A stretch of DNA of 64,000 bases from an uncultured virus (IMG/VR IMGVR_UViG_3300048861_000257) (IMGVR_UViG_3300048861_000257); one strand, 5' to 3'; counted from the stretch's first letter, positions 12,500 through 50,061 are shown. Made by a program: numbers and translations. Notes: a model not told the origin generated them from the letters alone.

Positions 12500-14734
12500 A
12501 TGCCAGTTGCGATCCTCACCGAGAAGCCCTCAGCCGGCCGCGCTTTCGCCGGCGCGCTGGGTGGCACCCAGGGCACCTTCAACGGCGAGTCCTATGTCAT
12601 CGTTTCGGCGCGCGGCCATCTGTTCGAGCTCGCGCAACCGCAGGATCAGCTCGTCGGCGCGAGCGCGGATGAGGCGCAGCGGATGAAGTCGTGGAAGCTG
12701 GAGAACCTGCCCTGGGACGCATCGGCCTTCTCCTGGGCCCGTGTGCCGATCAAGGGGACCAGCGACACCCTGAAGCAGTTGCGTACCGTCCTGCCCCGGG
12801 TCGACGAGATCGTCATCGCGACCGACCTCGATCCCACGGGGGAGGGGGACGCGATCGCCTGGAACATCATCGACGAGCTGAAGCTGCACGGGAAGAATTT
12901 CTCCAGGATGGAGTTCACCGACGAGGCCCCGGCCTCGATCCAGAAGGCCTTCGTGAAGCGGCGGCCGGTGAAGTCGATGCTGGCCGAGGGCAACTACCTC
13001 ATGGCCGACTTCCGTAATCGATTCGACTTCCTCACCATGCAGTTCACCCGCGTGGCCTCGCTCACGGCCGCTCAGCGCACGGTGCTGCGGCAGGGTCGGC
13101 TCAAGTCGGTCATGGTGAAGCTCGTCGGCGAGCAGCTGGCCGCCCACAACAACTACGTGAAAGTGCCCCGGTACCAGAACCGGTTCCGCGACGAGAACGG
13201 GGTGCTCTACACGAACCCGGAGGAGCCACAGTTCGCCACCGAGGGCGAGGTCCCCCGGATCTACCAACCGTCCGCCGTCGTGCTCGACAAGCGCACGAAC
13301 AAGGCCACGGCACCGAAGCGTCTGCTGGATCTCGCGGGCCTCTCCGCGCGCCTATCCAGCAAGGGCGTGAAGGCTGATCAGGTCCTCGCGGTCTACCAGA
13401 AGATGTACGAGAACCAGGTGGTCTCCTACCCGCGAACCGAGGACAAGACGATCACCACCGAGCAGTTCAACGAACTGCTCCCGTACGTCAACAAGATCGC
13501 CGCCGTCGTCGGCGTGGACGTGACACTGCTCACCCACCGGCAGCCCCGGAAGACCCACGTGAAGGACTCCGGCGCGCACGGCGCCAACCGTCCCGGCCCC
13601 AAGGTCCCCGCCTCGCTCGACGCACTCAAGACGACGTACGGCACGATCGCCCCGCTGATCTACGTCGAGCTCGCGCGCTCCTACCTGGCCATGCTCGCCG
13701 AGGACTACCTCTACGAGGCGCAGGAGGGCCACCTGGAGCGCTACCCCGACTTCATCGGCCGGGCCAGCGTGCCGAAGAGCCTCGGCTGGAAGCAGGTGTT
13801 CTTCGACGTCGACGACAAGGACGACGACGAGGAGGATGAGGACAACCCGAAGGGGCTCGGCACCATTGGGCAGCCGATCGTCTACGAGATCATCCCGCCG
13901 CGGCCGGAGCACCCGTCGATGAAGTGGCTGATGAAGCAGCTGGAGAAGCGGGACGTGGGCACCGGTGCTACGCGGACCAGCACCTACGCCGACGTCACCA
14001 GCAACAGGGGCGACTACCCACTGTTGAGCGAGTCCCGCGGCAAGATCACGATGACCGAGTACGGCGACATGAGCTATCGGCTGCTGCCCGGAACGAGGAT
14101 CGGCGACCTGGAACTCACCGAGCGCGTCTACGCGACGATGCGCGACGTCGCGGCCGGGAAGACGAGCGCCGACGACGAGCTGAAGATCGTCGCACAATGG
14201 GTGCTCGAGGACATCAAGACGATGAGCGCCAACGCCGTCATCATGCGCAAGGAGCTCGGGCTCAACGAGGCGCAGCCTCGCAAGGAGCAGGTCTCCGGAG
14301 TGTGGGCCGTCACCGGTGAGCAGGTCCGATTCAGCCGGGAGTGGTCGGGACACACCTTCACCGACGCGGAGGTCGACGCTCTGCTCGCCGGCCAGGAGAT
14401 CTCCTTCACCGCCATCAACTCCTCCGACAAGAAGCAGTACACGGCGCGCGGAAAGCTCGCGCATCAGACGTTCACCAAGAACGGCCGCGATACGGCGTAC
14501 TTCGGCTTCAAACGCGACAGGGCACCGCGACTGGACGCCAGCGGTGCGGCGATCCCCCCGGCCGAATGGTGCGGACACGTATTCAGCCGCGACGAACTCA
14601 CGAAGCTGAAGGCCGGCTCCAAGATCTACGCCGACGACTTCGCGAGCAAGAAGGGGAAGACCTTCGCCGCGACCGTCCACTTCGGCCTCGAAAAGGGGTC
14701 GAAGGTGAAGAGGATCATTCCCGAGTTCGGCTGA
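12500..14734 (+). CDS. Type IA DNA topoisomerase (plasmid topo III-like)
   Basis: TOPRIM ILTEKPS, ARGHL and ATDLDPTGEG; QGRLKS; catalytic SYPRTE; GTGATR; RBS AAGGAG. Confidence 0.92.
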   Translation: MPVAILTEKPSAGRAFAGALGGTQGTFNGESYVIVSARGHLFELAQPQDQLVGASADEAQRMKSWKLENLPWDASAFSWARVPIKGTSDTLKQLRTVLPRVDEIVIATDLDPTGEGDAIAWNIIDELKLHGKNFSRMEFTDEAPASIQKAFVKRRPVKSMLAEGNYLMADFRNRFDFLTMQFTRVASLTAAQRTVLRQGRLKSVMVKLVGEQLAAHNNYVKVPRYQNRFRDENGVLYTNPEEPQFATEGEVPRIYQPSAVVLDKRTNKATAPKRLLDLAGLSARLSSKGVKADQVLAVYQKMYENQVVSYPRTEDKTITTEQFNELLPYVNKIAAVVGVDVTLLTHRQPRKTHVKDSGAHGANRPGPKVPASLDALKTTYGTIAPLIYVELARSYLAMLAEDYLYEAQEGHLERYPDFIGRASVPKSLGWKQVFFDVDDKDDDEEDEDNPKGLGTIGQPIVYEIIPPRPEHPSMKWLMKQLEKRDVGTGATRTSTYADVTSNRGDYPLLSESRGKITMTEYGDMSYRLLPGTRIGDLELTERVYATMRDVAAGKTSADDELKIVAQWVLEDIKTMSANAVIMRKELGLNEAQPRKEQVSGVWAVTGEQVRFSREWSGHTFTDAEVDALLAGQEISFTAINSSDKKQYTARGKLAHQTFTKNGRDTAYFGFKRDRAPRLDASGAAIPPAEWCGHVFSRDELTKLKAGSKIYADDFASKKGKTFAATVHFGLEKGSKVKRIIPEFG

Positions 14735-14758
14735 TCCGAGAGCACGCGTCCCGACCAG

Positions 14759-14793
14759 AGACCCCCATCTGCGAACCGAGCCGATGGGGGTCT
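14759..14793 (+). terminator. Intrinsic terminator
   Basis: AGACCCCCATC...GATGGGGGTCT hairpin after the topoisomerase gene. Confidence 0.6.
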
Positions 14794-14866
14794 TCGCGTG
14801 CCGGGATTGACTCTCTGAATCGTTGTGCCACCCCAAATGGGGACCCCGTAAATCCGTTCATTCTCG

Positions 14867-14878
14867 CTCGTTTTCGAG
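14867..14878. promoter_or_regulatory. Palindromic box, copy 6
   Basis: CTCGTTTTCGAG, upstream of the virB3/B4/B6-like operon. Confidence 0.6.
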
Positions 14879-14957
14879 CGAATACGTTAGCCCAGCAGGT
14901 AGGCTAGAGGGCAGTGTGGGCCGCCGACCGGCCTACCGAGATCAGGAGGCGGAACAC

Positions 14958-15824
14958 GTGGCGAAGAGCATCTACAAGATCCCGAGCTCACTCAACCGCT
15001 CGGTGCTCGACCACGAGATCACACTGAGCGGCGGCGGCCTGCAGATCAAGCCGCTACCGGTGAAGGTGATCGGGTTCTGGATCCTGTCGATCTTCGCCCT
15101 GTTCTGGCTGCTCACGAACACGTTCCTCAAGAGCGCCGACTGGTACCTCCTGGGCCTCATCGTCGTCTGGTGGTTGCTCGCGACCGCGTTCTTCGGCAAC
15201 TACTCCAAGACCAAGGAACTGAAGCTCAGCAGCGTCCCCGCGCTGCTCAACTACCTGCCGCGCTCGGCCCGACGAGTCTCGACTCGCAAGGCGGACGATC
15301 CGAGCGCCTTCTACGCGATCGCCGGCATCGACGGCATCGACGACTCGGGCTTCATCGCCTGGGGCGACGGCACTGTCGGCCAGGCGTACCAGGTGGTCGG
15401 CTCGGCATCGGTCCTCGTGTTCGCTCAGGACAAGACCTCGATCCTGGACCGGGTCGACGCCTTCTACCGCAAGGTCGACACGAGCGCTGAGTATCTCTGG
15501 TTGACGACGAAGGAGCCGCAGCGCGTATACCGCCAGCTCGGCAACCTCGAGAAGCGCAACCTCGCTCTCAACATCGATGACCCCGAGCTGTTCGAGCTGA
15601 TGCAGGAGCAGCACTCGATCCTGAAGGACTACGTCGGTGGGTCGTTCACCTCCATCCACCAGTACCTCGTCATCAAGGCCGACAACCTCGAGGCGCTGCG
15701 TCGAGCGCACGCCGTGGTCCGGGCCGAGGCCGAGGAGTCGGCGCTGATGATCAAGCAGCTCACGCAGCTGGACGGCGACGACACCAAGGAGATGTTCGCC
15801 AACTTCTACGGGCGTTCCGCCTGA
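14958..15824 (+). CDS. Conjugation membrane protein (VirB3/TrsD-like), directly upstream of virB4
   Basis: Two TM helices followed by a soluble domain; RBS AGGAGG with GTG start. The call rests mainly on position. Confidence 0.55.
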   Translation: MAKSIYKIPSSLNRSVLDHEITLSGGGLQIKPLPVKVIGFWILSIFALFWLLTNTFLKSADWYLLGLIVVWWLLATAFFGNYSKTKELKLSSVPALLNYLPRSARRVSTRKADDPSAFYAIAGIDGIDDSGFIAWGDGTVGQAYQVVGSASVLVFAQDKTSILDRVDAFYRKVDTSAEYLWLTTKEPQRVYRQLGNLEKRNLALNIDDPELFELMQEQHSILKDYVGGSFTSIHQYLVIKADNLEALRRAHAVVRAEAEESALMIKQLTQLDGDDTKEMFANFYGRSA

Positions 15825-15880
15825 GCCGCGTGGCGGCCACGATGACCTCTCCGACGATTCACGAGCACAGGGACCAGACC

Positions 15881-18115
15881 ATGAGCCTCAGCACCACACA
15901 GGACACCGCCTCGACCAGCCACTCCGCCCCGTGGGCCGCAAGCGCTGCTCCGTTCGCTGGCGAAGGGGGCCTCGCCTCCCTTCGACGCACGGCGGCCGAG
16001 ACCAAGGTCTCTGAGGCCGAGCGCGCGGAGGACGACGCAGACCCCTACGCCGGCCTCAGCCCGAAGGAGCGCCGGGCGGCCGAGCGTCAGGCACGCCGGT
16101 TGAAGGGCACCTTCGCCGACTACCCGCATCTGCTGGCCATCAAACCGCGCGAGGGCTACCTCTTCCGGAGCGACTACTTCGACGTCGACGGCGGGATGGC
16201 GTGCATCCTCGGCTTCTTCCACGACGAGGCAGCGCGCGACGACTTCGGTGCGTTCTGGGGCATCAACCGGGTCCCCTCCGGCCTGGGCGAGGGCGTCAGC
16301 GTGATCGTGCTGGAGCAGGTGCGCCGGATGGGCGAGAAGTGGATCGACGACCACGTCACCAGCACCGAGAGGCTGGAGAAGCTCTCCGACAACGAGCAGA
16401 ACGCGTCGGGCACCAACAGCTCTCGACGGAAGGCCAACAAGGTCGCCTCCGACGTCGAGATCGCCTCGGCCGAGATCCAGGACGGCGCCAGCTACCTCCA
16501 CGTGCACGACCGACTGCTGGTGAAGGCGCCCTCGCTGGCAGCATTGGACGAGACCCTCGAGCGCATCGGCCGGCTGTACGTCGATCGGTTCGCGACGCTC
16601 ACCGTGGCCGCCTACCCGGGGGAGCAGCGGCAGGAACTCTCCGCAGCGTTCCGGAAGAACGAGAAGAAGCGCGGCAAGGGTCAGCACTTCACCTCGATCG
16701 AGTTCGCCGGTTCGCACTCCCTGGTCACCAACGGGCTGAACGACGCAGCCGGAGAATACGTCGGTTCGATGCTCGGCGACGTGAACAACTCGGCCGTCCT
16801 CTTCGACGTCAACGGATACGAGCACCATGTCGTCGTCGCCGACGGGACGATGAACGCCGTCCTGGGCCGGGCGCACGTGCCCGACCTGTGGGGGAGCAAG
16901 GTGAGCCAGAGCGCGCTGCTGAACAACGGCCGCGTGGTCCACCTCATCCTCGACGGAGCTAACCTCGACGTCCTCGGTCCGAAGCTGACGAACATCACCG
17001 CGAGGCTGGACATGAACAGCGGCGACATCAACATGTTCGAGATGTTCGGCAACCGCGAGGACGAGCTCTCGATCTTTCCGGCGCACCTGGAGAAGATCGT
17101 GCTGATGGCCGAGCAGGCCTACGAGACCACCGACGACGACCGCTCGATCATCCGCGGATCGCTCAAGGAGACCCTGACCCAGTTCTACATCGACAAGGGA
17201 ATGTGGGCTCGCAACGCCAAGGTGAACCGCGACCGTCTGCGCCTGGTCGATCTCGACCACACGCACCTGCCTCGGCTCCAGGACCTGGTGACCTACTTCG
17301 ACACCCAGTACCGTGCGCTGGCCAACAGTCAGGCCCGCGACCCCGAAGCGCTGCACGCATACTCGGTCCTTCGGCTGGTGTTCAAGGACCTCCTGGACAA
17401 CAACGGCGACCTCTTCAACACGTACACCAGCGAGGAGATCGACGGGGTCGTCGAAGCCCGCCGCGTCCTCTACGACTTCTCCAAGCTGCTGCGCCGCGGC
17501 AAGGGCATCGCCATGGCACAGCTCGTCAACACCGTCGGTTTCGCCGTGGACAACCTCGGCCTCGGGGACACCGTCATCATCCACGGCACCGAGCACATCG
17601 ACGACCGGGTGAAGGCCTACATCACGACCCAGTTCGAGCGCCTGTTCGCGCGCGGCGGTCGGGTCGCCTACCTCTACAACGACGTCGACAAGATGCTCAA
17701 GGACTCGGAGTTCAACCGATTCGACCGAGCCGACTGGACCGTCCTCGGCCCCATGAGCGACCTGACCGTCGCGGCCTACCAGAAGCAGCTCTCCCAGGAC
17801 ATCCCGCCGGACCTCGAGCGCCTGGTCACCACCCGTGGTCAGGGGCTCGCATACCTCCGGCGCGGCGTCACCAACGTGGTCTTCCACCTCGACCTGGCAC
17901 TCGGTATCAATCCGCGCCGCGCCGCGCAGCGTGCTGAGGCCGAGCGTCTCGCAGCGGCCCTCCGCGCCACCCGCCGACCCATCACCGACACCACCGCGGC
18001 ACCCGCCACCAGCGGGGCGGAGCGATCGGTCAGGCCGAGCATGCGACCACGCGCCCTCCCCGACGCACCTGTACGGCAGGGCGTCACCACGACCTCCATG
18101 ATCCCGACGCGATGA
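15881..18115 (+). CDS. VirB4-like conjugation ATPase with degenerate Walker motifs
   Basis: VirB4-like layout (GEYVG...SAVLFD, RVVHLILD, INMFE, LPRLQDL, LYDFSKL, RGGRVAYLYNDV, RGQGL) but no GxxGxGK[ST] and no DE Walker B. Confidence 0.65.
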   Translation: MSLSTTQDTASTSHSAPWAASAAPFAGEGGLASLRRTAAETKVSEAERAEDDADPYAGLSPKERRAAERQARRLKGTFADYPHLLAIKPREGYLFRSDYFDVDGGMACILGFFHDEAARDDFGAFWGINRVPSGLGEGVSVIVLEQVRRMGEKWIDDHVTSTERLEKLSDNEQNASGTNSSRRKANKVASDVEIASAEIQDGASYLHVHDRLLVKAPSLAALDETLERIGRLYVDRFATLTVAAYPGEQRQELSAAFRKNEKKRGKGQHFTSIEFAGSHSLVTNGLNDAAGEYVGSMLGDVNNSAVLFDVNGYEHHVVVADGTMNAVLGRAHVPDLWGSKVSQSALLNNGRVVHLILDGANLDVLGPKLTNITARLDMNSGDINMFEMFGNREDELSIFPAHLEKIVLMAEQAYETTDDDRSIIRGSLKETLTQFYIDKGMWARNAKVNRDRLRLVDLDHTHLPRLQDLVTYFDTQYRALANSQARDPEALHAYSVLRLVFKDLLDNNGDLFNTYTSEEIDGVVEARRVLYDFSKLLRRGKGIAMAQLVNTVGFAVDNLGLGDTVIIHGTEHIDDRVKAYITTQFERLFARGGRVAYLYNDVDKMLKDSEFNRFDRADWTVLGPMSDLTVAAYQKQLSQDIPPDLERLVTTRGQGLAYLRRGVTNVVFHLDLALGINPRRAAQRAEAERLAAALRATRRPITDTTAAPATSGAERSVRPSMRPRALPDAPVRQGVTTTSMIPTR

Positions 18116-21100
18116 CGAGTCAGCGGACCATCAGCAGTCAGCCACGACGAGACCAGCAAGGACACACGATGACTGAGACCAGAAGCGTCCAGGGAGCACC
18201 GCGCACACTGCTCGCATTCCTTCGCGAAGGACGCGCCGGCGACGCCCAGTCGATCGCGCGCTCGCGCCGTGCCCGGCGACGCCCCTGGGGTCCGCGCCGA
18301 TGGATCGCGCTCGGCATGATGTTGCTCATCCCGCTCGTCGGTGTCTTCGGTGCGACCGCGGCCGCCAACGCCGACGACTCGAATGACGACGCGATGAAGT
18401 ACTCGTTCTACAAGGTCGCCTCTTCGACCACCGCGTTCTTCTCCACCATCCAGGAGCCCGGCAATAACAAGAGCTTCAGCGCACCCTGGACCACGATGCT
18501 CGCCGACCCCGGATCGGCCGGCTCGCTGCTGGGCTACGCGGACCCGGACTTCACCTCAGTGTCCGGCTGGCTGGCCTCCAAGCTCTCCGGCTCGTCGGAC
18601 GCGATCGGCTACGAGACGCTCCTGGTCCGCGATGCAGGCGACTCGGGCAACTATTCCAGCTCCAAGTACCAGGGCATGGTCGACTACGCGTACTTCGGCG
18701 CAGCGCTGAAGGGCATGGGTCTCGACGGCACCAGCACCGGCCTCTCGCTCGGGTTCATGAACTGGATCTCTGGCGGCATCGTCATGCTGCTGTTCATCTT
18801 CGGCGGGGCCGTCGACTTTGTCTTCAACTCCTTCATCAGCCTGCTGGGGATGCTGAACCCGTTCAAGCTCTTCTACCTCGGCGTGCAAGCGATCAGCCCC
18901 GAGCTCGCCAACGGCATGGTCGGCAACAGTGACAACACCAACGTCGGCCCGTTGAGCGGCCTCGTCAGCTGGATCGGTGGCTGGTACCAGGCGCTCCACG
19001 ACCTGTCATGGACCGTGCTGGTGCCCGTGTTCGTCGCGGTCCTCATCATCTCGCTGCTGCTGTTCAAGAAGGTCGACAAGGGTGGCGCCTTCAAGAAGAT
19101 CGTCATCCGCCTTCTGTTCATCGGCATCGGTCTGCCGCTGTTGGGCTCGATGTACACAGGCATGATCGACTCGATGGCGAGCGCCTCGACGTCGGGGAAC
19201 GCGGGCTCCGCCCGGGTGGTCATGAGCACCTACGTCGACTTCGAGAACTGGGCGGTGAAGAGCCGCCTGGCTATCCCCTCGAAGGCCATCATCGAATGGG
19301 ACTCGTCGTCCGCTCAGCCCAGTGGCAAGGCACAGTCCAACGTGCGCAACACCGCGCTTGCGATCAACAACCAGACGCACGGGCTGGGTCTGAACCAGAT
19401 CCTGACCTCCGGGTCCTACGACGCCAGCTGGGCCAACCAGATCATGGAGGGTAAGACCACCGACGCCACGACGAGCGCGAACATCTTCGCCAAGACCGTC
19501 GACATGCTGGTGCGGTACATGCAGGGATCGCAGATCTCGTCGGCCTCATTCGAGACCATCTCCAAGGGCGACCTGACGCAGTCGACGTTCTACTACGAAC
19601 ACGGCAACGACACTGTGAAGTCGTGGTTCGAGGACCTCACGAAGAAGGCCGACGACCTGAACAAGGACGACGCGACCCCCGGCTCGAACCCCCTCGTAGC
19701 AGTGCAGTCCGGAACCGGCTTGCGAGCGGACGGGACCGGAACGCGTACCTTCAGCTCGACGACCAGCGGCTGCAGCTTCACCGGTACGACCATCGTCGGC
19801 GCCGACGGCGCACCGCGCGCGTGCAACCTCTCGCCCCTGGCGATGTACAACTACCTGAACACCGACTTCGGCCCGACGTCGATGCGGATGTACTCGTCCT
19901 CGAACGTCGCCTCCGAGGCGACCCGGTCCATCCACAACTCGGTCGATCAGGTCGGTACGGGTGCGATGAGCTTCCTCTACTGGTTCAACGCCGTCGTGCT
20001 GCTGGGCTCGTTCGTGCTCATCGGGCTGGGCTACGCCTTCGCGCTGCTGTTCGCCAGCATCCGACGCTCGTTCCAGATCATCACGGCCGTGCCTTTCGCC
20101 ACGCTCGGCGCGCTGGCCGCGATCGCCAAGGTGGTCGTCTACTCGGTTGCCCTGGTGCTCGAGGTGGTTGTGACGATCTTCGTCTACAAGATCGTGCAGG
20201 AGTTCCTCACCTCGCTGCCCCAGATCATCGAGATGCCGTTCGCCTCGGTGCTCTCCAACGGTGCCACCGGTCCGCTCGCAGGATTCGTGGCGTTCCTGAT
20301 CAGCGGGTGGGGCTTCGGTCTGGTCGTCACGCTGCTGTCGATCCTGGGAGTCGTCGGCTTCACCGTTCTGGCGCTGCGCGTTCGGAAGGTGCTGGTCAAG
20401 GCCGTCGAGGAGGCGGTCACGAAGCTCGTCGAGAAGTTCATGGACACCCCGGTCGGGGTGCCCGGAGGCGGCAAGCTCGCCCCGGCCCTGGCGGGAGGCA
20501 TGGCCGCAGGTGCGGGCGCCGCAGCCGCGAACCGCATGATGGGCCACGGCGGCGGCAAGAGCCCTGTCGGCTCCCCGCTGCCCGGCAACCACGGCGGCCC
20601 CGACGGCATCACCACTGAGGGCGGCACCGTACCAACTGGTCCCGTCCCGGACGGTGGTGGCGACGGCCAGCTCGAGCTCACGGGCAAGATCGCCGGAGCC
20701 GATGGGAACGGCGACCCCGGTACCTCGGTCGGCGGCAGCCTTCCCGGTGGCCCGTCGAGTCAGGACGCGGCCAAGGAGGTCGCGCTGGGTCGCCAGGTCG
20801 AGGCGAACGGCCTGTCCAAGCGCGACGAGATCCGCGCTCCGCAGGTCGGTGACGATGCCCTCAGCTCGGCCTCCGACTCGGTGGACAAGTCCGCCGCGGG
20901 GTACGCTGCGGCCGACAAGAAGCAGCTCCAGGCGGGCACCGAGGGCGCTCAGGCGCTCGGGCACGGCGCGGTCGCGGCCGGTCGCGGTGTGGCCGGGGAC
21001 TACGCGGGAGCCGCGGAGTCCGGTGGCAAGGCGATCGAGCACGGGGGAGCGGCGGCAGCCGCCGGACACCGGGCGAAGCAGCTTGAGGCCGACGCCGGGC

Positions 21101-21513
21101 GCAGCTCGCTGGACAAGCCGAACCAGCGGCACGCCCAGCAGGCCGCGAAGGCGCAGCAGGTCTCGAGGGCGGGGACGGCTATCTCGCGGGCCGGTGGCAT
21201 GGCCGGAGGCTCGAAGGCCGCGACCTCGGTCGGACCCGTGAAGACCAAGCAGGGCTCTCCGCAGACCGCGAAGAAGGTCCAGCCGGCCCCGCCGAAGAAG
21301 CAGTCCGTGCCGACGGCTCCGCAGCCGGCTACCTCGAAGCCTGTCCCGCGGTCACCGAAGCCGGTCGTTCAGAAGGCCGAGACGGTACCCACTACATCGA
21401 AGCCTGCTCCTCAGCGGGCACCGCGTGCACCGCGCCCGTCCCGACCGGCTCCGCAGGCGCCGCGGCCGGCCACGAAGAGCAGCCCGCGCGACGAGGAGCG
21501 ATCCGGCAAGTAG
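18112..21513 (+). CDS. VirB6-like polytopic membrane protein with a G/A/P-rich cytoplasmic tail
   Basis: Multiple TM helices and a low-complexity C-terminal tail; ATGA overlap with virB4 (alternative start 18169). Confidence 0.65.
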   Translation: MTSQRTISSQPRRDQQGHTMTETRSVQGAPRTLLAFLREGRAGDAQSIARSRRARRRPWGPRRWIALGMMLLIPLVGVFGATAAANADDSNDDAMKYSFYKVASSTTAFFSTIQEPGNNKSFSAPWTTMLADPGSAGSLLGYADPDFTSVSGWLASKLSGSSDAIGYETLLVRDAGDSGNYSSSKYQGMVDYAYFGAALKGMGLDGTSTGLSLGFMNWISGGIVMLLFIFGGAVDFVFNSFISLLGMLNPFKLFYLGVQAISPELANGMVGNSDNTNVGPLSGLVSWIGGWYQALHDLSWTVLVPVFVAVLIISLLLFKKVDKGGAFKKIVIRLLFIGIGLPLLGSMYTGMIDSMASASTSGNAGSARVVMSTYVDFENWAVKSRLAIPSKAIIEWDSSSAQPSGKAQSNVRNTALAINNQTHGLGLNQILTSGSYDASWANQIMEGKTTDATTSANIFAKTVDMLVRYMQGSQISSASFETISKGDLTQSTFYYEHGNDTVKSWFEDLTKKADDLNKDDATPGSNPLVAVQSGTGLRADGTGTRTFSSTTSGCSFTGTTIVGADGAPRACNLSPLAMYNYLNTDFGPTSMRMYSSSNVASEATRSIHNSVDQVGTGAMSFLYWFNAVVLLGSFVLIGLGYAFALLFASIRRSFQIITAVPFATLGALAAIAKVVVYSVALVLEVVVTIFVYKIVQEFLTSLPQIIEMPFASVLSNGATGPLAGFVAFLISGWGFGLVVTLLSILGVVGFTVLALRVRKVLVKAVEEAVTKLVEKFMDTPVGVPGGGKLAPALAGGMAAGAGAAAANRMMGHGGGKSPVGSPLPGNHGGPDGITTEGGTVPTGPVPDGGGDGQLELTGKIAGADGNGDPGTSVGGSLPGGPSSQDAAKEVALGRQVEANGLSKRDEIRAPQVGDDALSSASDSVDKSAAGYAAADKKQLQAGTEGAQALGHGAVAAGRGVAGDYAGAAESGGKAIEHGGAAAAAGHRAKQLEADAGRSSLDKPNQRHAQQAAKAQQVSRAGTAISRAGGMAGGSKAATSVGPVKTKQGSPQTAKKVQPAPPKKQSVPTAPQPATSKPVPRSPKPVVQKAETVPTTSKPAPQRAPRAPRPSRPAPQAPRPATKSSPRDEERSGK

Positions 21514-21532
21514 CTCGCGACGAGCACCTCAT

Positions 21533-21569
21533 GGGCAGGTGGTCACGATTCGGTCGTGGCCACCTGCCC
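21533..21569 (+). terminator. Terminator-like hairpin
   Basis: GGGCAGGTGGTCACGA-TTCGG-TCGTGGCCACCTGCCC. Confidence 0.55.
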
Positions 21570-21592
21570 CCGTTCTTGGGGACACGGATTCA

Positions 21593-21604
21593 CTCGTTTA
21601 CGAA
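21593..21604. promoter_or_regulatory. Palindromic box, copy 7
   Basis: CTCGTTTACGAA, upstream of the pilin-like gene. Confidence 0.6.
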
Positions 21605-21695
21605 TGAGTTTGGAAGGATTTACATGTAGAGTGTTCAGCAGGGGTGCGACCCCGCAGGACCAGAGATTCCACTCACCGAACAGCGAGGACAACGC

Positions 21696-22067: not shown

Positions 22068-22099
22068 TCCCGTTGGGAAGCCACCCAAGCGCATAGGAG

Positions 22100-23495: not shown

Positions 23496-23553
23496 GCACG
23501 AGGCGGCCGCACCCGACGGTGCGGCCGTACCTGTGACGACGAAAGGACGACCG

Positions 23554-25419: not shown

Positions 25420-25464
25420 CCCGCGCAACAGCATTCAGCACAGACGTAGACGGAGATCAGGAAC

Positions 25465-28748: not shown

Positions 28749-28830
28749 CAGCCAGTCGAATGGGCCCGCGCGGGACGACCTCCAGCGCGGGCCCTTCGCC
28801 ATCCAACAGATCAGATGGGGAGAGGAAGAC

Positions 28831-32735: not shown

Positions 32736-32833
32736 CAGATCGGAGCGGACAGGGGGTGTGGGCACGGCGTCTCCAATGGGTGTTGAGCTGCCCAACTCCA
32801 GCAGCGGGTGTAGGGGTGTCACGGCAGCCCGCG

Positions 32834-32842
32834 TGCTATAAT
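32834..32842 (+). promoter_or_regulatory. Extended -10 promoter of the Clp-type ATPase gene
   Basis: TGCTATAAT is a perfect TGn-TATAAT; the palindromic box follows 4 bp later at 32847. Confidence 0.7.
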
Positions 32843-32846
32843 TACA

Positions 32847-32858
32847 CTCGTTTATCAG
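32847..32858. promoter_or_regulatory. Palindromic box, copy 10
   Basis: CTCGTTTATCAG, 4 bp after TGCTATAAT, upstream of the Clp-type ATPase gene. Confidence 0.7.
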
Positions 32859-32893
32859 TGTTTTTGAACAAGTCGACAGCGGGGGCAAGCAGC

Positions 32894-34669: not shown

Positions 34670-34726
34670 CCCCAGTTCGGGGCCGTTCGGGCCTCTTCCG
34701 CGACACCTTCCAAATCCTCATATATG

Positions 34727-34738
34727 CTCGTATATGAG
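34727..34738. promoter_or_regulatory. Palindromic box, copy 11 (with an overlapping partial copy at 34717)
   Basis: CTCGTATATGAG, preceded by CTCATATATG. Confidence 0.7.
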
Positions 34739-34762
34739 AGAGATCAGGAAAGGACGTTGACC

Positions 34763-37042: not shown

Positions 37043-37181
37043 ACCGGCGGTGTGGCCGGTTTCCTGATCTCCCTGCCACACCGCCAGCAACGGAACGGGG
37101 CGCGTCGCCACAGAGGCGTCGTGCCCCGTTCCCACGTCAAGACAAGACTTATCGACTCGCTCGGTGAACGAGCACAGGAAG

Positions 37182-41183: not shown

Positions 41184-41194
41184 CCTTAAAACAC

Positions 41195-41206
41195 CTCGTT
41201 TATGAG
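41195..41206. promoter_or_regulatory. Palindromic box, copy 12
   Basis: CTCGTTTATGAG, upstream of the RNAP gene. Confidence 0.72.
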
Positions 41207-41295
41207 GAAATCCGTTCAAATTTACACTAGGATTGTGGGTGAGATCAGCATCACCGAGGCCGGTTGAACCGGCCTTCCAAGAGGGGAAAGAACCC

Positions 41296-44200: not shown

Positions 44201-46869
44201 CGGAGAAGCACGCCATCCGCGGTGCCGACGGCCAGGCCCGCCCGCTGGTCCCCGGTGACAAGCTCAGCGACATGCACGGTAACAAGGGCGTCATCTCCCT
44301 CGTCATCGACCGGGACCAGGACCTCGCCGAGACGGTCGAGGACCGGAACCTGTTCCGCGCTCTGGACATCTTCAAGGAGAACCCCGAGTTGGACGTCGTG
44401 ATGAGTCCGTTCTCCGCGGTGTCGCGCTTCAACGGCGGCACGGCGCGCGAGCTCATGCAGGAACCCAGCAGCCTGTACATCCCCGAACGCGGATTCACGG
44501 AGAACGCGCTCGGCAAGATGCGGCTCATCGTCACCCACAAGGACGTCGAGCGCGGCACCCGGGTGTACGACGACCAGGCGCTCCTCGAGGGCCGCGGCCG
44601 GAAGGCATCGAGCCAGTTGGCTTGGGCACTCGGTTCTCAGGGCGCAGACAAGGTGATGGCCGAGTTCTACGGGCCGAACAACTCCGCCGTGGCGAACTTC
44701 CGCGAGATGCTGGTGACGATGGGCCTCGACCTCGAGCCTGACGGCACCCTGCGAGTCGGCTACGACGACCTGGCCGAGGGCGCCGAGCGCCGGCTGTTCC
44801 CGATGCCCGAGCTCGCGCTCACGGCGAGGGGAACGCTGAACGCCGGGAAGATGAAGGCCGAGTTCGGTCAGCTCATCGGTGACCGCGGCGGTGACCTCGA
44901 GCTGCCCTTCCCGCTGCGGTTCCCGACCGGTGAGCGCATCCCGACGGCGAGCGACTCGACGTGGAAGCTGCCGATCATGAGCTCGCACCTGCGAAGCGGC
45001 CAGGACCTCGACGACGGACAGAGCACCGCTCACGACTACACGAACCAGTACCTGGCCGTGTACGAGATGGCGAGCCGGTACCGCTTCGCCAAGGACGAGA
45101 TCGCCCGCAACGGCGAGGTGCTCAGCCCGAAGCGCCGGAACGACCTGGAGGCGATCATCGCCGAAGCGCCGCGGCGTGCCCAGGCTGCATTCGACACGAT
45201 CACCGACGACCTGAAGCAGAAGCGCTTCTCCGGTAAGCGGAATGTCTTCAAGGAGGGGCTGATGTCCTCGCGGCTGCCGAACTCGGCAACCGCCGTGTGG
45301 ACCTCGGACCCGCGCCTGGACATCGACCAGGTCGCGGTCGGCCCGGCGATGGCTGAGGCGCTCGGGCTCGAGGACGACGACTACGCACTGATCTGGCGCG
45401 ACCCCGTGCTCCGCGACGGTGGCGTGCGCTACCTCCGAGTGAAAGTCGACGAGCGCCTGACCGGCGTTGCGATCAGCCCGGTGATGGACAAGTCCTTCGA
45501 CGGCGACTTCGACGGTGACTCGGTCGCCGTCGTCCGGCTGACCAGCGAAGCGGCACGTCATCAGGCGCTGCAGAAGCTCACTGTCGAGGCGAACCTCCTG
45601 GACCTGGGCCAGTTCGGCGACGACGCGCTGCACCCGCTCATGATGCAGGACTCGTTGGACGTGAAGGTTTCCCAGCACGTCGACCCGCGACGAGCCGAGA
45701 CGTTCGCGGCGCTGAAGATGCGGGCCAACGAGATCCAGAGTGACCTCGAGGACGGTGCAACGACGGACGCCGAGGCGTGGGAGGAACGGCACGAGCTTGT
45801 CGGGCAGCTCTCGGACTACTACCGAGAGGTGATGGAGTCGCAGTTCGGCGACGCGTTGCTCCGATTCGGCGACGCCGGCGACCACGTCAAGAGCGTGATC
45901 GAGGCTTGCATCGACACCGGCGCCAAGGGCTCGATGTCCAAGATTGGTGACTACTGCCGCCACCTCGGTGTCGACCCCGTCACGATGGCGGACCTGGGCG
46001 ACACCCAGCACACCCGGGTGGAGGACGAGGGCGTCATGATGGCCACGGCCGTCAAGTCGCACGGCACCGGCATCGCCGGCGCGTTCTCCCAGCGCGGCGT
46101 CAAGGCGCTGCGCAACGCGGAGCTGAAGGCGGTGCTGGAGCTGACCTACCCGGTCACCCAGTCCGTGCTGCAGTCCAAGCACGACCCCGAGGAGGCGCGC
46201 CAGAAGTACAACATGCTGATGGGCCCGGCTAGGGCGCTGTGGAAGGGCCGCAAGCTGGAGGTGCTCCCCAACGAGGACGGCACTCGCGAGTGGGCCGTCG
46301 TGCGCGATGACAACGGCAAGGAGGTGCAGGCCGACGTCGAGACCTGGAAGTCGCAGTTCGTCGAGCTCTACACCGCCAAGGACGGGCTCAACGTATCGGT
46401 GAACACCGCCAACGTGGAGAAGGTGGCCACGGCCCTCACCGGCCCGGACGGCCGTATCGTTGACATCGAAGACCTCGAGAACGACGCTCTCCCGGGCGCC
46501 GGTTCCACCATGGACCGGTTGGCCTACGGCGGCACGTTCGAGCATGTTCTCGCTGCGGCTGCCGCTCGCGAGAACATCTTCGACGGCTCCGAGAACGGGC
46601 ACTTCGCTCCCTACCAGGTCCGTAGCAACCAGCGGGCGATCGCCGAGTGGGAGAGGGCCACCGAGGAGGGCCTGGAGGTCGAGGCACCGGAGGTGAAGGT
46701 ACTCGTGAACCGCGACGTCCTCGCCGACCACGACGCGCGCGCCCGTGCACGAGGCGAGGGTCGAACCTCCTCGGTGGCGACGACCGTTCGTGCGCCGCGG
46801 CCACGTCCGGTGTTCGGCATGGCGGAAGCCGAGCAGGCAGCCGAGGGGGTCGAGGAGTACCAGCTGTAA
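41296..46869 (+). CDS. Single-polypeptide two-barrel (beta/beta'-like) DNA-dependent RNA polymerase
   Basis: Beta-like: GWTADDPMVVS, PGDKLSDMHGNKGVIS, DVVMSPFSAVSRFN. Beta'-like: GKRNVFKEGLMSSRLPNSATAV, IWRDPVL, DGDFDGD, TGAKGS, bridge helix ATAVKSHGTG..SQRGVKAL, trigger loop YPVTQSVLQSKH. RBS GAGGGGAAAG before ATG 41296. Confidence 0.88.
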   Translation: MDPRSPGMRRYLYEHLFQQTIERTQDATGKTILVSAARDLRSKVEQKLTGEGLSMADANLSISPVLRAIESTMQENVPGYPGIFGDATPESPAYQQMKDAFFDMAGFSRKGADGTIVQPSTGQAGPRLPLSPYDPRWAVRSTVKQAGSGVRYVLANEVEEYAGGNASRISELRTENLRLYTLDEKGQAVEAGAAYSDDDASGMTELMSRMSEPEYRNVRDWVINGARGQDERLNPDRFMTPEALERAAAILDELRSQGVGYKVRRDRNPGQIRAEIEGTKISVRLTELRENEHFVGRVYDDGVSTYYSTNVKADGSQKTLPYTPTAAEAVALLRIAQGKPVERADGKGLIGELGTHTETEWNARAGRRIPVDVQDSYYTKNDRASMAVVGDLVINGRIPEPGAKVLVRRSAKARTATAQFFLDAERGEAYLREAIESARENLGAALDVDRLVADYRDHSDEASAGEWFPEFSGDAEVAAIQRSYWDVLRGTQTTLLRSGATEEEYQAKVGVIGELQVDTDEARNVHDMLVSDLAYVGSAEQKVRDHAADVVDELVGTYEPHDQLLLDGELVQRRFDPVRVAKHMTSEFGTWRNNADIVAALRATGINGDDLMGSSFYATAVKDRLVQFDPETAVEPNMHPDPFVSEMGSAIGYAIERNGGRVTRLEIDDQGIASWEAERFSRTGEVETVRGQVGQIFGRGEHGEVVTRYAGGQNYLFVPGYEARISSQRAGEDLSVEERTLLRGYEQIMRDQIEYQVANDMLVMRTEVGEPTSLNGVYRRLYDVRHEVDFIERASEEGLGSEWVNAILATEARRVRYPSEIASGSTVHAAWRAENSTQAVDPANDNRFDPWILTGGRNMAIMTEEGDGFFDPVMTNGAVYQGITRYLVEGAQVDPATGKIVPSADPADRTPLMKLPETEMMRFDPYDRQQMSASNLLNAAAVTEPVGVAMMTFGGWTADDPMVVSKEFAEKHAIRGADGQARPLVPGDKLSDMHGNKGVISLVIDRDQDLAETVEDRNLFRALDIFKENPELDVVMSPFSAVSRFNGGTARELMQEPSSLYIPERGFTENALGKMRLIVTHKDVERGTRVYDDQALLEGRGRKASSQLAWALGSQGADKVMAEFYGPNNSAVANFREMLVTMGLDLEPDGTLRVGYDDLAEGAERRLFPMPELALTARGTLNAGKMKAEFGQLIGDRGGDLELPFPLRFPTGERIPTASDSTWKLPIMSSHLRSGQDLDDGQSTAHDYTNQYLAVYEMASRYRFAKDEIARNGEVLSPKRRNDLEAIIAEAPRRAQAAFDTITDDLKQKRFSGKRNVFKEGLMSSRLPNSATAVWTSDPRLDIDQVAVGPAMAEALGLEDDDYALIWRDPVLRDGGVRYLRVKVDERLTGVAISPVMDKSFDGDFDGDSVAVVRLTSEAARHQALQKLTVEANLLDLGQFGDDALHPLMMQDSLDVKVSQHVDPRRAETFAALKMRANEIQSDLEDGATTDAEAWEERHELVGQLSDYYREVMESQFGDALLRFGDAGDHVKSVIEACIDTGAKGSMSKIGDYCRHLGVDPVTMADLGDTQHTRVEDEGVMMATAVKSHGTGIAGAFSQRGVKALRNAELKAVLELTYPVTQSVLQSKHDPEEARQKYNMLMGPARALWKGRKLEVLPNEDGTREWAVVRDDNGKEVQADVETWKSQFVELYTAKDGLNVSVNTANVEKVATALTGPDGRIVDIEDLENDALPGAGSTMDRLAYGGTFEHVLAAAAARENIFDGSENGHFAPYQVRSNQRAIAEWERATEEGLEVEAPEVKVLVNRDVLADHDARARARGEGRTSSVATTVRAPRPRPVFGMAEAEQAAEGVEEYQL

Positions 46870-46881
46870 CAACGGCACAGA

Positions 46882-46915
46882 AGGAAGCCCCGTACCGAAT
46901 GGTGCGGGGCTTCCT
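46882..46915 (+). terminator. Intrinsic terminator after the RNAP gene
   Basis: AGGAAGCCCCGTACC-GAAT-GGTGCGGGGCTTCCT. Confidence 0.65.
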
Positions 46916-46928
46916 CCTGTTGAATTGC

Positions 46929-46940
46929 CTCATTTACGAG
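46929..46940. promoter_or_regulatory. Palindromic box, copy 13
   Basis: CTCATTTACGAG, upstream of the 47024 gene. Confidence 0.72.
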
Positions 46941-47023
46941 CAAACACGATAAGATCGGCTCATCTACAAGCGAGATGGTTCCGGCATCGGAATCCCGCTC
47001 CGCACGACGCAGAGGACCGTGAC

Positions 47024-49183
47024 ATGGCAGCCCAGAACAAGCGCAAGCTCGGCATCCCGATCTACGACGCCCGCGTGGTGCCCGAAGGTACGGTGCTCGA
47101 TGACGAGGGGGTGCTCGAAGCCGAGGTGATTGGCGACGGCCCCACGTTGGGGGAGCGGGTCCGTTCTCGCGTTTCTGCCGGGGCCGAAGCTGCTGCGGAG
47201 ACCGCTCGCAACATCCGGGCGAACGGCGCCCGCGACGCCCTGTTCACCGAGCGATTCGATGAGGCCCGCACGGCCGCCGGCGACGCCGACCCGCGCATCC
47301 AAGAACGGCAGCAGGGTCGTGCCCGTCGTCGCGATCAGGAGCGTGTCCGGCGCGAGCAGACCGCAGACGTCAAGCGGGACCGTGCCGAACGCTCGAAGCT
47401 TGCTCAGGACGCGAAGACTGACCCGCTTGCCAAGCTGAAGCTCGACACGATCCGCGCGGGAGAGAGCTACATGGACAGCCTCCGCCGATCGCAGATCCTG
47501 GCTGCCGGCCAGACCAAGGCCACGCAGCGCAAACAGCTCAGCGACATGCACCAGGTGTACGCGTCGATGATGGTGCTGCAGTGCGTCGAGCCGCTGCGCC
47601 AGGGGCTTCGCGGACACAACATCGTCAACGCGCTCGGCATGGGTGCCTCGATGTGGCTGCTCTCGCCGAACTTCCGTGTGCAGGTGCAGAACTTCGTCGG
47701 CCAGGTGGGCGACGCGATCCGGGAAAAGATCGACGGTCGCGGTGACAAGAAGGACGCGAAGGCCCAGAGCCGCTTCGAGAAGCTGGCCAGCCGCGGCAAG
47801 GGTGACCAGCTCGCCGCCCGTTGGCGGAAGCGGCTGGACCGGATCGAGAACGCCGAGCGCGGCCACCGCCTGCCGTTCACCGCACAGAGCGCGGCGATGA
47901 CCGAGGTCGCGCTTGCCGAGGCCGCCTACGCTGACATGCGACGCCCCGGCGCTGACCGCCGCGCGGTGCAGGACCGCTACGAGTCTGCGCTGTCCGCCCT
48001 GTACGAGTACGTCGATGACGACGGGCTGGACCGCGACGAGGTCTCGCGCTCGATGCGTGTGATCGTGGGCCAGCGGTTGGAGGCAGACCCGTCGATCGCG
48101 AACGTCTTCAGCGAGTTGGGTCACGGGCGTTTCACCAAAAGCGAGCCGCGCGAGGTCTACATCAACGGCACCACCGACACCGCGACCGTGTGGACCGGTG
48201 ACTTCGTCGACTCCTACGAAGGGCGCACGATCTCCGCAGGCTCCTTCAGCCTGCGGCCACCCATGGGCGTGAACGAGCACCGGGTGCTCTCTGCGGAAAC
48301 ACTCGCGGCGGAGCTGACCAGCGCCCGCACCGTCGCAGAGATGAACGACGCTCTCTCGCAGTACGTCGTCGCCGCGTCGGTCGGCCAGTACCCGGCGGTG
48401 GTCGACGAGCTCGAGGACCGCGCCGCACAGCGCCGGTTTGGCAAGGTGCACACGATGTTCGCGTCGATGCAGGCTGACGGACTCAGCGCCGAAGAGCAGC
48501 ACTTCGCCTACAGCGCCGCGTACGTGGACGCCGTCGAGGTCGCTCAGCGTCTGAAGCCGGAGCTCAGCGCCGCGTGGGTCGCCCAGTACGGCGAGAACTG
48601 GCGGGAGAAGGTCGCCGAGGACATCGCTCGCTACAACGCCATGGGCGCGGCCGCGGAGCGCGAGAGGCGCGGCCCGACCGATGGTGGCCACTTCCCGTCG
48701 TCGGGCACCCACCCGCACGGACAGGCTCGCGATGAAGAGGCATACTCCACTGAGGACATCGTCGACGCCGAGGTCGTCGACGACTTGGATGCGCACCAGA
48801 TGCCGAGTCGAGGCGACCGTTCGCGGCCCACCCCGCCTCGGCCAGGTACAGCTCGTCGCTCGCGGGCGCTGGAAGACCTCGTCTATGAGGGAGACGTGCT
48901 GCCCGACACGACGCGCGGGGCGGACGCCGAGATCATTAACGGTGAACTCGTAGAAACGGCCGAGCTCGGCGCAGCACCCAACCGCGCAGCCATCCTCGCC
49001 GGGGCGGCGAGCACGGTGGAAGGGCTCGACGAGGACGAGCACGCCGACCGGTCGACCGCCGCCGGACGCATCCGCCGCGCCCGCGTGAACCAGCACTACA
49101 ACGAAGTGGACACCGGCGGCATCACCGGCATCGGTCGGGACGACGCCGAGCCACTGCAGGACGTGGATTTCCAGCTGGGTTGA
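47024..49183 (+). CDS. Large helical hypothetical protein downstream of the RNAP
   Basis: RBS AGAGGA before ATG 47024; ~719 aa; no motif recognised. Confidence 0.75.
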   Translation: MAAQNKRKLGIPIYDARVVPEGTVLDDEGVLEAEVIGDGPTLGERVRSRVSAGAEAAAETARNIRANGARDALFTERFDEARTAAGDADPRIQERQQGRARRRDQERVRREQTADVKRDRAERSKLAQDAKTDPLAKLKLDTIRAGESYMDSLRRSQILAAGQTKATQRKQLSDMHQVYASMMVLQCVEPLRQGLRGHNIVNALGMGASMWLLSPNFRVQVQNFVGQVGDAIREKIDGRGDKKDAKAQSRFEKLASRGKGDQLAARWRKRLDRIENAERGHRLPFTAQSAAMTEVALAEAAYADMRRPGADRRAVQDRYESALSALYEYVDDDGLDRDEVSRSMRVIVGQRLEADPSIANVFSELGHGRFTKSEPREVYINGTTDTATVWTGDFVDSYEGRTISAGSFSLRPPMGVNEHRVLSAETLAAELTSARTVAEMNDALSQYVVAASVGQYPAVVDELEDRAAQRRFGKVHTMFASMQADGLSAEEQHFAYSAAYVDAVEVAQRLKPELSAAWVAQYGENWREKVAEDIARYNAMGAAAERERRGPTDGGHFPSSGTHPHGQARDEEAYSTEDIVDAEVVDDLDAHQMPSRGDRSRPTPPRPGTARRSRALEDLVYEGDVLPDTTRGADAEIINGELVETAELGAAPNRAAILAGAASTVEGLDEDEHADRSTAAGRIRRARVNQHYNEVDTGGITGIGRDDAEPLQDVDFQLG

Positions 49184-49206
49184 TCCGGCAGTTCACGCTA
49201 GACTTA

Positions 49207-49218
49207 CTCATATACGAG
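49207..49218. promoter_or_regulatory. Palindromic box, copy 14
   Basis: CTCATATACGAG, 2 bp after TAGACT, upstream of the 49270 gene. Confidence 0.72.
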
Positions 49219-49269
49219 CGAATCCGCACCGCGCGGAATCGGAAGACCGATAACAGAGAGAGGTGCGGC

Positions 49270-49596
49270 ATGGCGATCCCGGGTTTCCCCAACGAGGCCG
49301 AGCTGTCGTCGATGATGGGCTTCGTCACCGACGAGGACCGAGAGCGCTGGGACAAGATGAAGGCCGCATCCGACAAGCAGCTGGACGAGGCGCGAAGTGG
49401 CCTGACCGCACGCGGTCTTGCGTCACAGTCCGCGGGACCGGCCATGCACTTCGCTGAGCGGGCAATCAGCGCGAAGATGACCGGCGCGGAGATGGAAGCG
49501 CGTCGCGAGACATCCCGCAAGGAGACGAAGCGAACCGTAACGACGTTTGAGACGGTCGAGCCAGTAAAGTCTGACGGAGCCGGCCTGGAGTTCTGA
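49270..49596 (+). CDS. Small hypothetical protein
   Basis: RBS GAGGTG before ATG 49270. Confidence 0.6.
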   Translation: MAIPGFPNEAELSSMMGFVTDEDRERWDKMKAASDKQLDEARSGLTARGLASQSAGPAMHFAERAISAKMTGAEMEARRETSRKETKRTVTTFETVEPVKSDGAGLEF

Positions 49597-49713
49597 CGAA
49601 CTCCGTTCGGTATCCGAAATTGCCCGGTTCCGCTAGGCCCTAGCACCTGCCGGAACGACGAATAACATGCTTGAATACGAGATAATTCGAGCGGATTCCC
49701 CATTGGAGACCAG

Positions 49714-50061
49714 ATGACCAACACCCCGGAAGGCAACGCCGCGGATCGAGTGAACCGCCGTGAGTTCACCCAGCGCGTCGCCCAGCGCGCGGGCGTCCCC
49801 GAGCGTGTCGCAGCGTCCGTGTATTCGGCTCTCGTTGACGAGCTGGTGGAGATCACCAAGAACGGCTACAGCGTCACGCTGTCCGGGTTCGGTCGGTTCT
49901 ATCCGCAGACGCATGGAGGGCACAAAGTTCGTGCTCGGTTCGACAACCCGCAGGAGATGAAGGAGGTTGAGGACTACGCGGTCCTCAAGTTCTCCGCAAC
50001 ACGGGAAGTGAACAAACGAGTCAGTGGCCAGGACAAGCCCGACAAGAAGAAGAGGGGCTGA
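49714..50061 (+). CDS. HU/IHF-family DNA-binding protein
   Basis: VNRREFTQRVAQRAG...VTLSGFGRF...LKFSA HU signature. Confidence 0.85.
   Translation: MTNTPEGNAADRVNRREFTQRVAQRAGVPERVAASVYSALVDELVEITKNGYSVTLSGFGRFYPQTHGGHKVRARFDNPQEMKEVEDYAVLKFSATREVNKRVSGQDKPDKKKRG

Follow-up and report, generated by a model that had tools for sequence, protein, structure and literature searches.

The stretch of DNA analyzed here, called the window throughout, comprises 64,000 nucleotides of one strand from an uncultured virus (IMG/VR IMGVR_UViG_3300048861_000257). It encodes a single-chain β::β′-type RNA polymerase (RNAP) whose open reading frame (ORF) starts approximately 110 nt past the end of virD4, the gene of a coupling protein. 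This direct succession had been pointed out in a first-pass annotation of the DNA and is upheld. The polymerase gene is part of a module of fixed order, which consists of a Clp-like ATPase, a tail-anchored protein (u34724), VirD4, RNAP, two unknown proteins (u46745 and u49180) and HU. Nearly every long ORF between positions 12416 and 50061 is encoded on the plus strand, making this part of the window a co-directional transfer block. The window has a G+C content of 62-69% and is best explained as holding the transfer genes of a large conjugative element from actinobacteria, recovered from soil-metagenome DNA; the element seems to continue past both ends. The coordinates of the features are collected in Table 1. 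The likely start codon of the polymerase is the ATG at 41296, which lies 3′ of a AGAGGGGAAAG ribosome-binding site, and the N-terminus MDPRSPGM is conserved in the three closest relatives. The database record begins at 41317 and gives 1850 residues.

By direct reading, the RNAP contains GDKLSDMHGNKGVIS, followed some 400 residues on by FDGDFDGDSVAV with FDGDFDGD, the respective hallmarks of the β and β′ barrels. Pfam matches in the window copy are weak (Rpb2_6, 4.6e-6, residues 1001-1027; Rpb1_2, 8.6e-6). The signatures GDK..GNKGV and D.DFDGD nevertheless stay unchanged in all of the 15 relatives aligned, whose identity goes as low as 27%. They include residues D981, K982, G988, N989, K990 and G991 of the β-type barrel and D1395, D1397, D1399 and D1401 of the β′ metal-binding triad, the latter aligning to NADFDGD of β′. 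A profile of the family matches bacterial β′ and eukaryotic Rpb1 at 1e-13 to 1e-10 (best, 1.8e-13), and the match spans β′ residues 239-493 with the metal-binding site included. An AlphaFold model of the core (residues 640-1720, 39-row alignment) has a pLDDT of 89.6 and a pTM of 0.84. Foldseek identifies bacterial β′ chains as the top solved matches of this model (2e-11). VIA superimposes it onto Rpb1, RPC1, A190 and archaeal A′ with Z of 16.7-17.4 and a root-mean-square deviation of 3.2-4.7 over 316-467 residues. The aligned region runs from model residue ~501 to ~964 (to 1081 in some rows) against Rpb1 ~17-872, and some alignments extend to Rpb1 residue ~1400. A weak second stretch of the profile aligns TGAKGS to β′ region F; this and the late Rpb1 stretch may correspond to the trigger loop and the bridge helix.

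With D314 and D342 as their markers (alignment A3), the halves of the β barrel stand just 28 positions from each other, and therefore the enzyme has no counterpart of the flap insert of cellular β. The first 640 residues also yield a confident model (pLDDT 90.5). For the N-terminal 710 residues, Foldseek returns no match at E ≤ 0.001, and the best VIA-wide hit reaches Z 5.8 over residues 1-85 only, with no clear known fold. The N-terminal 640 residues are family-specific. The models indicate a β-like double-psi barrel followed by a β′-like half in which the clamp comes first, then the metal-binding barrel, and finally the funnel and the putative bridge helix. The protein is a fused core of the cellular type that, the missing flap aside, is rather complete, and by its motifs it is catalytically complete.

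A near-length search found 573 relatives of the RNAP, mostly annotated as "hypothetical proteins", and an exhaustive search of representatives gave 560 clusters with E ≤ 1e-3, of which 371 had E ≤ 1e-30. With one genome per species, 145 stretches were confirmed, and the best 80 were kept, giving 51 loci from Leifsonia, Plantibacter, Microbacterium, Actinomyces, Arthrobacter, Pseudarthrobacter, Kribbella, Promicromonospora, Streptomyces, Saccharopolyspora and other genera. The proteins of the window were searched against these loci with tblastn, leaving out L035 (a 5.5-kb contig), for a total of 50 loci with flanks, counted to nine genera of actinobacteria. VirD4, u34724 and u46745 occur in every one of them (50/50). 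The respective numbers for the Clp ATPase, HU and u49180 are 49, 47 and 28. The linked genes always have the order and strand seen in the window (u34724-VirD4-RNAP-u46745). The MobL relaxase is found in 11 loci and u31213 in 19, both counts being bounded by the 10-kb flank. A synteny survey had been proposed in the first-pass annotation with the expectation of linkage to virD4, relaxase and Clp genes; VirD4 and Clp agree with it, as do the plasmids described below, and the relaxase count is flank-limited. The flanked loci represent the closest relatives (47-86% identical), and the counts say little about distant members of the family, a gap that the plasmids fill in part.

Homologues of the RNAP occur in 13 plasmid records. 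In Gordonia pGKT2 and Rhodococcus fascians pGS01, an AAA ATPase comes first, followed by a hypothetical protein, the coupling protein and RNAP. On Staphylococcus plasmid SAP020A, an RNAP homologue of 1807 aa (Rpb2_6, 2e-16; Rpb1_2, 1.6e-10) is accompanied by a Clp-like ATPase, a VirD4-like protein, topoisomerase III and a lysozyme/CHAP hydrolase. In a Lactococcus plasmid, a 2382-aa homologue is encoded near a lysozyme/CHAP gene, and VirD4 was not found there. The small proteins 3′ of RNAP in pGKT2, pGS01 and SAP020A gave no HU match, so the link to HU is restricted to the 47/50 closer loci and to a parallel in a Bacillus prophage (yonN, below). Laboratory movement of pGKT2 between genera has been described (Jung et al. 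2011, as summarized in the review PMC5640721).

Inserts of ~350 aa with LAGLIDADG_3 matches (1.8e-9 and 1.1e-10) enlarge some homologues of VirD4 (1706-1717 aa) and of Clp (980-1070 aa). Such enlarged genes are seen at L023:4686-9806, at L022:201-3413 and in ~20 other Streptomyces loci, and the inserts are probably inteins that reside in ATPase genes of the element itself.

No RNAP homologue is present among 50,697 phage records, and none of the 47 ORFs of the window scanned against PHROGs (16 + 31) matched a capsid, portal or tail-structure family. Only one row falls in the head-and-packaging class, a weak match between the P-loop of the Clp ATPase and a terminase family (E 1.9e-4), and the lysozyme domain of the hydrolase matches tail and lysis families. 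These results confirm the earlier view that the polymerase gene lies outside a prophage. A class-wide sample of 400 other genomes contains no copy (0/400), and among 401 genomes of one family the RNAP and this type of VirD4 are both found in the same 2 and nowhere else; the occurrence of the element family is sporadic. Such a distribution, together with the weak Pfam scores, might be expected of a decaying prophage or plasmid polymerase that has no present role. This explanation is scarcely credible, being already contradicted by the conservation data: the frames are full-length in 50 loci, the catalytic residues are invariant, the fold is confident, and the synteny is fixed across several actinobacterial orders and on the Staphylococcus plasmid. 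The RNAP is an intact, strongly conserved core gene of the element family. The proposal that it belongs to the transfer program is well supported as genomic linkage, by the 50/50 loci, the plasmids and the absence of the enzyme from phage records.

A 12-nt pseudo-palindromic box, CTCGTTTATGAG, is found at 19 sites with ≤2 mismatches compared to 2.25 expected. None of 100 shuffles reaches 19 sites (the maximum is 8), and all sites fall within 4090-49842. About 11 copies lie in A+T-rich spots immediately 5′ of plus-strand units, the RNAP gene included, and TAnnnT-like hexamers follow ~5-25 nt past most of these. The boxes also occur in the upstream part of the element, with the primase-helicase, and at orthologous places in the three closest relatives (L001-L003). 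The box is therefore a real cis-element of the family, and the palindrome that had been reported before RNAP and other genes is borne out. In all 50 relatives, the virD4-RNAP spacer contains a terminator-like hairpin, an A+T-rich stretch and a TAGGCT/TATGAT-like hexamer; more distant relatives have the same layout with other A+T-rich repeats. A hairpin in the 5′ leader of RNAP has similar counterparts at the same place in L001-L003 and may control translation. The G+C-rich hairpins located 3′ of many genes were also considered as a shared palindrome and rejected, as their sequences all differ and look like terminators.

These features could mean that host RNAP, together with an element regulator that binds the box, reads all units. 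The element's own polymerase would then have a narrower job, such as transcribing one operon or a non-coding RNA, or acting when host RNAP is blocked. The two-fold symmetry of the box, the hexamers that follow it and the layout of the virD4-RNAP spacer are consistent with this arrangement. However, no obvious dedicated regulator was identified beside the boxes, and a costly 5.6-kb gene at a fixed place in 50/50 loci would be left unexplained. We consider this explanation unlikely.

The relatives of RNAP, u46745, u49180 and u31213 resemble one another at the extreme C-terminus, where an acidic stretch leads into one aromatic or hydrophobic residue and then a short tail. Examples are ...DDDYGMGY, ...DDGFEL and ...EEYQL for RNAP, ...EDYQPA and ...DVDFQLG for u46745, ...EPDLEL and ...DPDFEL for u49180, and ...EEPAVG and ...DQPELG for u31213. 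The 40-100 residues before the tip are poorly conserved, and a basic patch (..RxRG..RRSxHAV..) is located ~30 residues before the RNAP tip. The pattern is descriptive, was written after inspection of the tails, and was tested on the last 8 residues, with L035 and the frameshifted L007 excluded. It is present in 38/49 RNAP, 35/49 u46745 and 23/28 u49180 sequences, compared to 0/49 for VirD4, 0/47 for Clp, 1/46 for HU and 0/49 for u34724. When the test is shifted 8-40 residues upstream, 0-2 matches are obtained for RNAP, u46745 and u49180, and 0-3 for HU. The loci are related and the counts accordingly dependent, with 33 distinct last-8 tails among the 49 RNAP sequences. Similar endings are seen in the RNAP homologues from Gordonia (..SEGLGA), from Rhodococcus (..HEGMGA) and from Staphylococcus (..DKGFELEM).

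The common tip suggests a common partner, and it may act as an export signal read by VirD4. A complex predicted for VirD4 residues 640-1339 and the last 69 residues of RNAP scored 0.00, in a run made without controls. N4 and crAss-like phages have large virion polymerases that enter the target cell with the DNA and read early genes. Theirs are packed in the capsid, whereas delivery is hypothetical here, and they serve as the model for the idea that RNAP is a substrate of the type IV secretion system (T4SS). The enzyme would be unfolded by the Clp-like ATPase, passed to VirD4 and sent with the DNA, and would transcribe early genes off the incoming single strand. The fixed position of RNAP between VirD4 and other conserved proteins, with an AAA+ ATPase nearby, fits this scheme, as do the tips common to RNAP and its two downstream neighbors, the related tip of u31213 and the tipped homologues of the other three genera. 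When viral models are compared, proteins of crAss-like phages and a "minor tail protein" are among the structural neighbors of RNAP. The N4 polymerase itself is T7-like and unrelated in fold (PMC5512222). Transfer of a primase together with DNA is documented, in that TraC1 of RP4 and Sog of R64 are plasmid primases exported through the conjugation channel that act on the incoming strand, as outlined in PMC5512222. Like RNAP, these are element-encoded nucleic-acid polymerases; unlike RNAP, they are Toprim primases and not two-barrel RNA polymerases. Against delivery, the motif was defined after the tails had been seen and in related loci, the tip could bind another partner, and a 200-kDa enzyme would need to refold in the recipient. 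Moreover, an ordinary promoter-like region precedes the RNAP gene, which might just as well be expressed once inside the recipient. On balance, delivery of RNAP strikes us as somewhat unlikely. It is equally doubtful that the tip is an export tag by which, via VirD4 and the Clp-like ATPase, a small set of proteins would be injected with the DNA, including an RNAP that reads the incoming strand before the host enzyme does.

The transferred plasmid primases also prime replication after transfer (PMC5512222), and RNAP could by analogy be mainly a primer-maker. Its RNA, made on the transferred strand or at the origin of the element, would start complementary-strand or vegetative replication. The enzyme is located in a DNA-processing neighborhood with relaxase, topoisomerase and HU. 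The element already has a P4/D5-type primase-helicase, however, and a protein of 1857 aa whose β′ half would reach from the clamp to the bridge helix is built for processive synthesis rather than for short primers. A priming role is distinctly improbable.

Table 1. Features of the window. Positions are counted from its first nucleotide; values in the last column are those of family matches unless described otherwise.
Feature	Position	Strand	Remarks
P4/D5-type primase-helicase, upstream part of element	4806-6749	+	family matches
Large Ig/PKD/β-propeller protein, upstream of block	8141-11065		
Type IA topoisomerase, topo III-like	12416-14734	+	Topoisom_bac 7.3e-30, Toprim 1.4e-12
Protein with two predicted membrane spans; VirB3-like by position only	14823-15824	+	span prediction
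VirB4-position protein, 761 aa, soluble, without Walker A	15830-18115	+	
Membrane protein, 1133 aa, seven predicted spans; VirB6/ConG-like by position only	18112-21513	+	no family match
Membrane-anchored cell-wall hydrolase	23533-25419	+	Phage_lysozyme2 1.7e-33; CHAP weak, 0.01
MobL-family relaxase	28831-31053	+	6.2e-78
u31213, small conserved protein; C-terminus of relatives ...[DE][DE]P-x-[VL]-G	31213-31860	+	
ClpB/ClpA-like double-AAA ATPase	32756-34669	+	AAA_2 4.3e-39; ClpB model 7.8e-79, under cut-off
u34724, conserved, no known family, single C-terminal membrane span, between Clp ATPase and VirD4	34724-37042	+	
VirD4-type coupling protein, 1339 aa, two N-terminal membrane spans	37164-41183	+	
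Exact CTCGTTTATGAG box	41195-41206	+	90 nt before RNAP start codon
−10-like TACACT/TAGGAT	41223-41233	+	3′ of RNAP-gene box
Hairpin GGCCGG-TTGAA-CCGGCC in RNAP 5′ leader	41257-41275	+	just before ribosome-binding site
Single-chain β::β′-type RNA polymerase, 1857 aa	41296-46869	+	
G+C-rich terminator-like hairpin directly after RNAP stop	46877-46920	+	20-nt arms, 90% complementary
Box copy CTCATTTACGAG	46929-46940	+	before gene after RNAP, 3′ of terminator-like hairpin
u46745, conserved unknown protein, 719 aa from ATG 47025	47025-49183	+	3′ of RNAP
u49180, small conserved protein, 138 aa	49180-49596	+	
HU/IHF-family DNA-binding protein, closes block	49714-50061	+	1e-8
UmuD/UmuC-like, MazG-like pyrophosphohydrolase, AAA ATPase, N6 DNA methylase	50134-64000	-	converging block
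Other intergenic or near-start box copies	6763, 8042, 14867, 21593, 27088, 31089, 32847, 34727, 49207		
Tip-bearing ends	46804-46869, 49162-49183, 49576-49596, 31840-31860		

Within the transfer block, the topoisomerase, hydrolase, MobL, Clp, VirD4 and HU assignments of the first-pass annotation are supported by family matches, with CHAP reaching only 0.01. Its VirB3/B4/B6/B2-like labels find no support in family models and derive from gene order, predicted spans and, for the 761-aa protein, language-model neighbors. VirD4 matches T4SS-DNA_transf (1.3e-17), TraG-D_C and TrwB_AAD_bind, as well as conju_CD1115 (1.5e-42, under cut-off), and is 58-82% identical to 18 relatives. No family match, even at E 5, was obtained for the proteins encoded from the topoisomerase up to the hydrolase, these two excepted; they fit a Gram-positive mating channel by position and predicted spans. 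The 761-aa protein matches nothing in Pfam, NCBIfam or PHROGs, has no Walker A motif, and its five-sequence profile has no match among PDB sequences. Its language-model neighbors (score 0.96) are P-loop_TraG, DUF87, AAA_10 and CagE_TrbE_VirB clusters, a VirB4/TraG neighborhood that is a lead and not a family membership. The protein is 55-77% identical to four relatives from other genera (L055-L058) and is conserved more than RNAP. In genomes of Streptomyces, Arthrobacter, Kribbella and Saccharopolyspora (G003, G404, G405 and G406), the VirB4-position gene lies ~56-264 kb away from the RNAP module, on the side opposite to that seen in the window, which indicates either very large permuted elements or separable modules.

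Other parts of the window are described more briefly. As a candidate oriT hairpin we note a 14-nt inverted repeat, GGGCCCGCGCGGGA / TCCAGCGCGGGCCC, at 28762-28794, immediately 5′ of the MobL relaxase gene. The u34724 protein has a conserved N-terminal part, a long charged middle and one C-terminal span, and could be a coupling-protein adaptor. Profiles of u46745, u15830 and u34724 matched nothing meaningful among PDB sequences. The converging genes at 50134-64000 resemble plasmid "leading-region" cargo, and the matching place in pGKT2 and pGS01 is occupied by a gene for SSB, the single-stranded-DNA-binding protein. A 702-aa protein encoded on the minus strand (1114-3222) gives weak matches to AEP-primase (TOTE) and a MarR-type helix-turn-helix, and the element may therefore encode a second primase-like gene. 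No integrase family was matched among the window ORFs scanned, and the window contains no tRNA genes and no Rfam families.

Several known systems resemble this one in part. YonO of the Bacillus prophage SPβ transcribes the late genes of SPβ (PMC5467207). As here, a mobile element encodes one chain with both catalytic barrels, and the HU-family gene yonN (Pfam 1.7e-36; L063:15834-16112) adjoins yonO, just as an HU gene closes the RNAP block; the parallel may point to a polymerase-HU partnership. The proteins differ in that YonO has 839 aa and is encoded among virion genes, whereas the RNAP has 1857 aa and a long β′-like half. Comparison of the family profile (alignment A1) with YonO by hhalign gives no similarity (probability 0.5, E 0.12), with sensitivity limited by the use of a single YonO sequence. 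On this basis the RNAP is not a member of the YonO family. "YonO" in papers on Clostridium perfringens plasmids is an author's name and not the protein.

By published description, the RNAP also resembles the NCgl1702-like fusions, which are actinobacterial, have the β::β′ order in one chain of ~2000 aa and lack the flap insert. NCgl1702 is an enigmatic 2169-aa β::β′ fusion, perhaps derived from a mobile element (Ruprich-Robert & Thuriaux 2010, PMC2919709), and fused polymerases of mobile elements of this kind have been published (PMC7824862). The enzyme class is thus already known from computation, and with NCgl1702-like fusions and YonO in print (PMC7824862, PMC2919709, PMC5467207) the designation of a "new system" was overstated. 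A T4SS context, a promoter box and C-terminal tips are not mentioned in the available text of the NCgl1702-like accounts. Orf6 of the yeast killer plasmid pGKL2, an Rpb2::Rpb1 fusion, gives that plasmid its own transcription (PMC2919709); unlike the RNAP, it resides on a eukaryotic cytoplasmic linear plasmid and has no conjugation link. We found no literature tying a fused polymerase to a T4SS element, the comparison standing apart from Iyer et al. 2003 and Iyer & Aravind 2012, which may already cover the gene neighborhoods of the family. Nor did the searched literature contain the strict VirD4 linkage, the reach to Staphylococcus plasmids, the box or the shared tips, and the actinobacterial surveys of integrative and conjugative elements that were checked do not mention a polymerase.

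The reading we prefer, and to which we give about an even chance, is that RNAP is an element-dedicated, DNA-dependent RNA polymerase that transcribes the genes of the element. We favor it because an intact enzyme of a processive type is maintained strictly and at a cost, and because YonO, the nearest functional precedent, transcribes its own element. The polymerase would read transfer and establishment genes without recourse to the host holoenzyme, and would do so over a broad range of hosts. The CTCRTWWAYGAG boxes, which precede 11 or more units, would be promoters that RNAP serves, either by itself or together with a factor of the element, for instance the HU-like protein; this assignment of the boxes is more speculative.

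A number of points weigh against a dedicated transcriptase. The symmetry of the box and the host-like −10 hexamers favor an operator, and a near-palindrome is more typical of the operator of a dimeric regulator than of a polymerase promoter. Because the TAnnnT hexamers after most boxes would presumably suit the main sigma factor of the host, host RNAP may drive every unit. The RNAP gene and the other units have the same box, so that no early/late split is visible. The enzyme would need to initiate without a flap or known factor. The only sequencing run that contains this DNA is a soil-metagenome DNA run, perhaps the one from which the window comes, and no RNA run is listed. Finally, the distance of the VirB4-position gene from RNAP weakens the view of a single machine in the four genera named above.

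Conjugation is usually described as dependent on host RNA polymerase. The present analysis reveals a widespread family of conjugative elements, found in soil bacteria and extending from Microbacteriaceae and Streptomyces to Staphylococcus plasmids, that retains a 5.6-kb cellular-type polymerase gene beside the coupling protein. The observation is real and statistically solid, and its interpretation is supported as linkage. What is new is the conserved acidic-hydrophobic C-terminal tip on RNAP and three other proteins of the element. The "enigmatic" actinobacterial β::β′ fusions gain a concrete biological setting, which includes the transferable plasmid pGKT2. If tip-tagged injection were to occur, it would be conjugation's counterpart of the N4 and crAss-like virion polymerases. 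If RNAP transcribes the element, it would constitute an orthogonal, probably rifampicin-insensitive expression system and would help explain transfer across genera.

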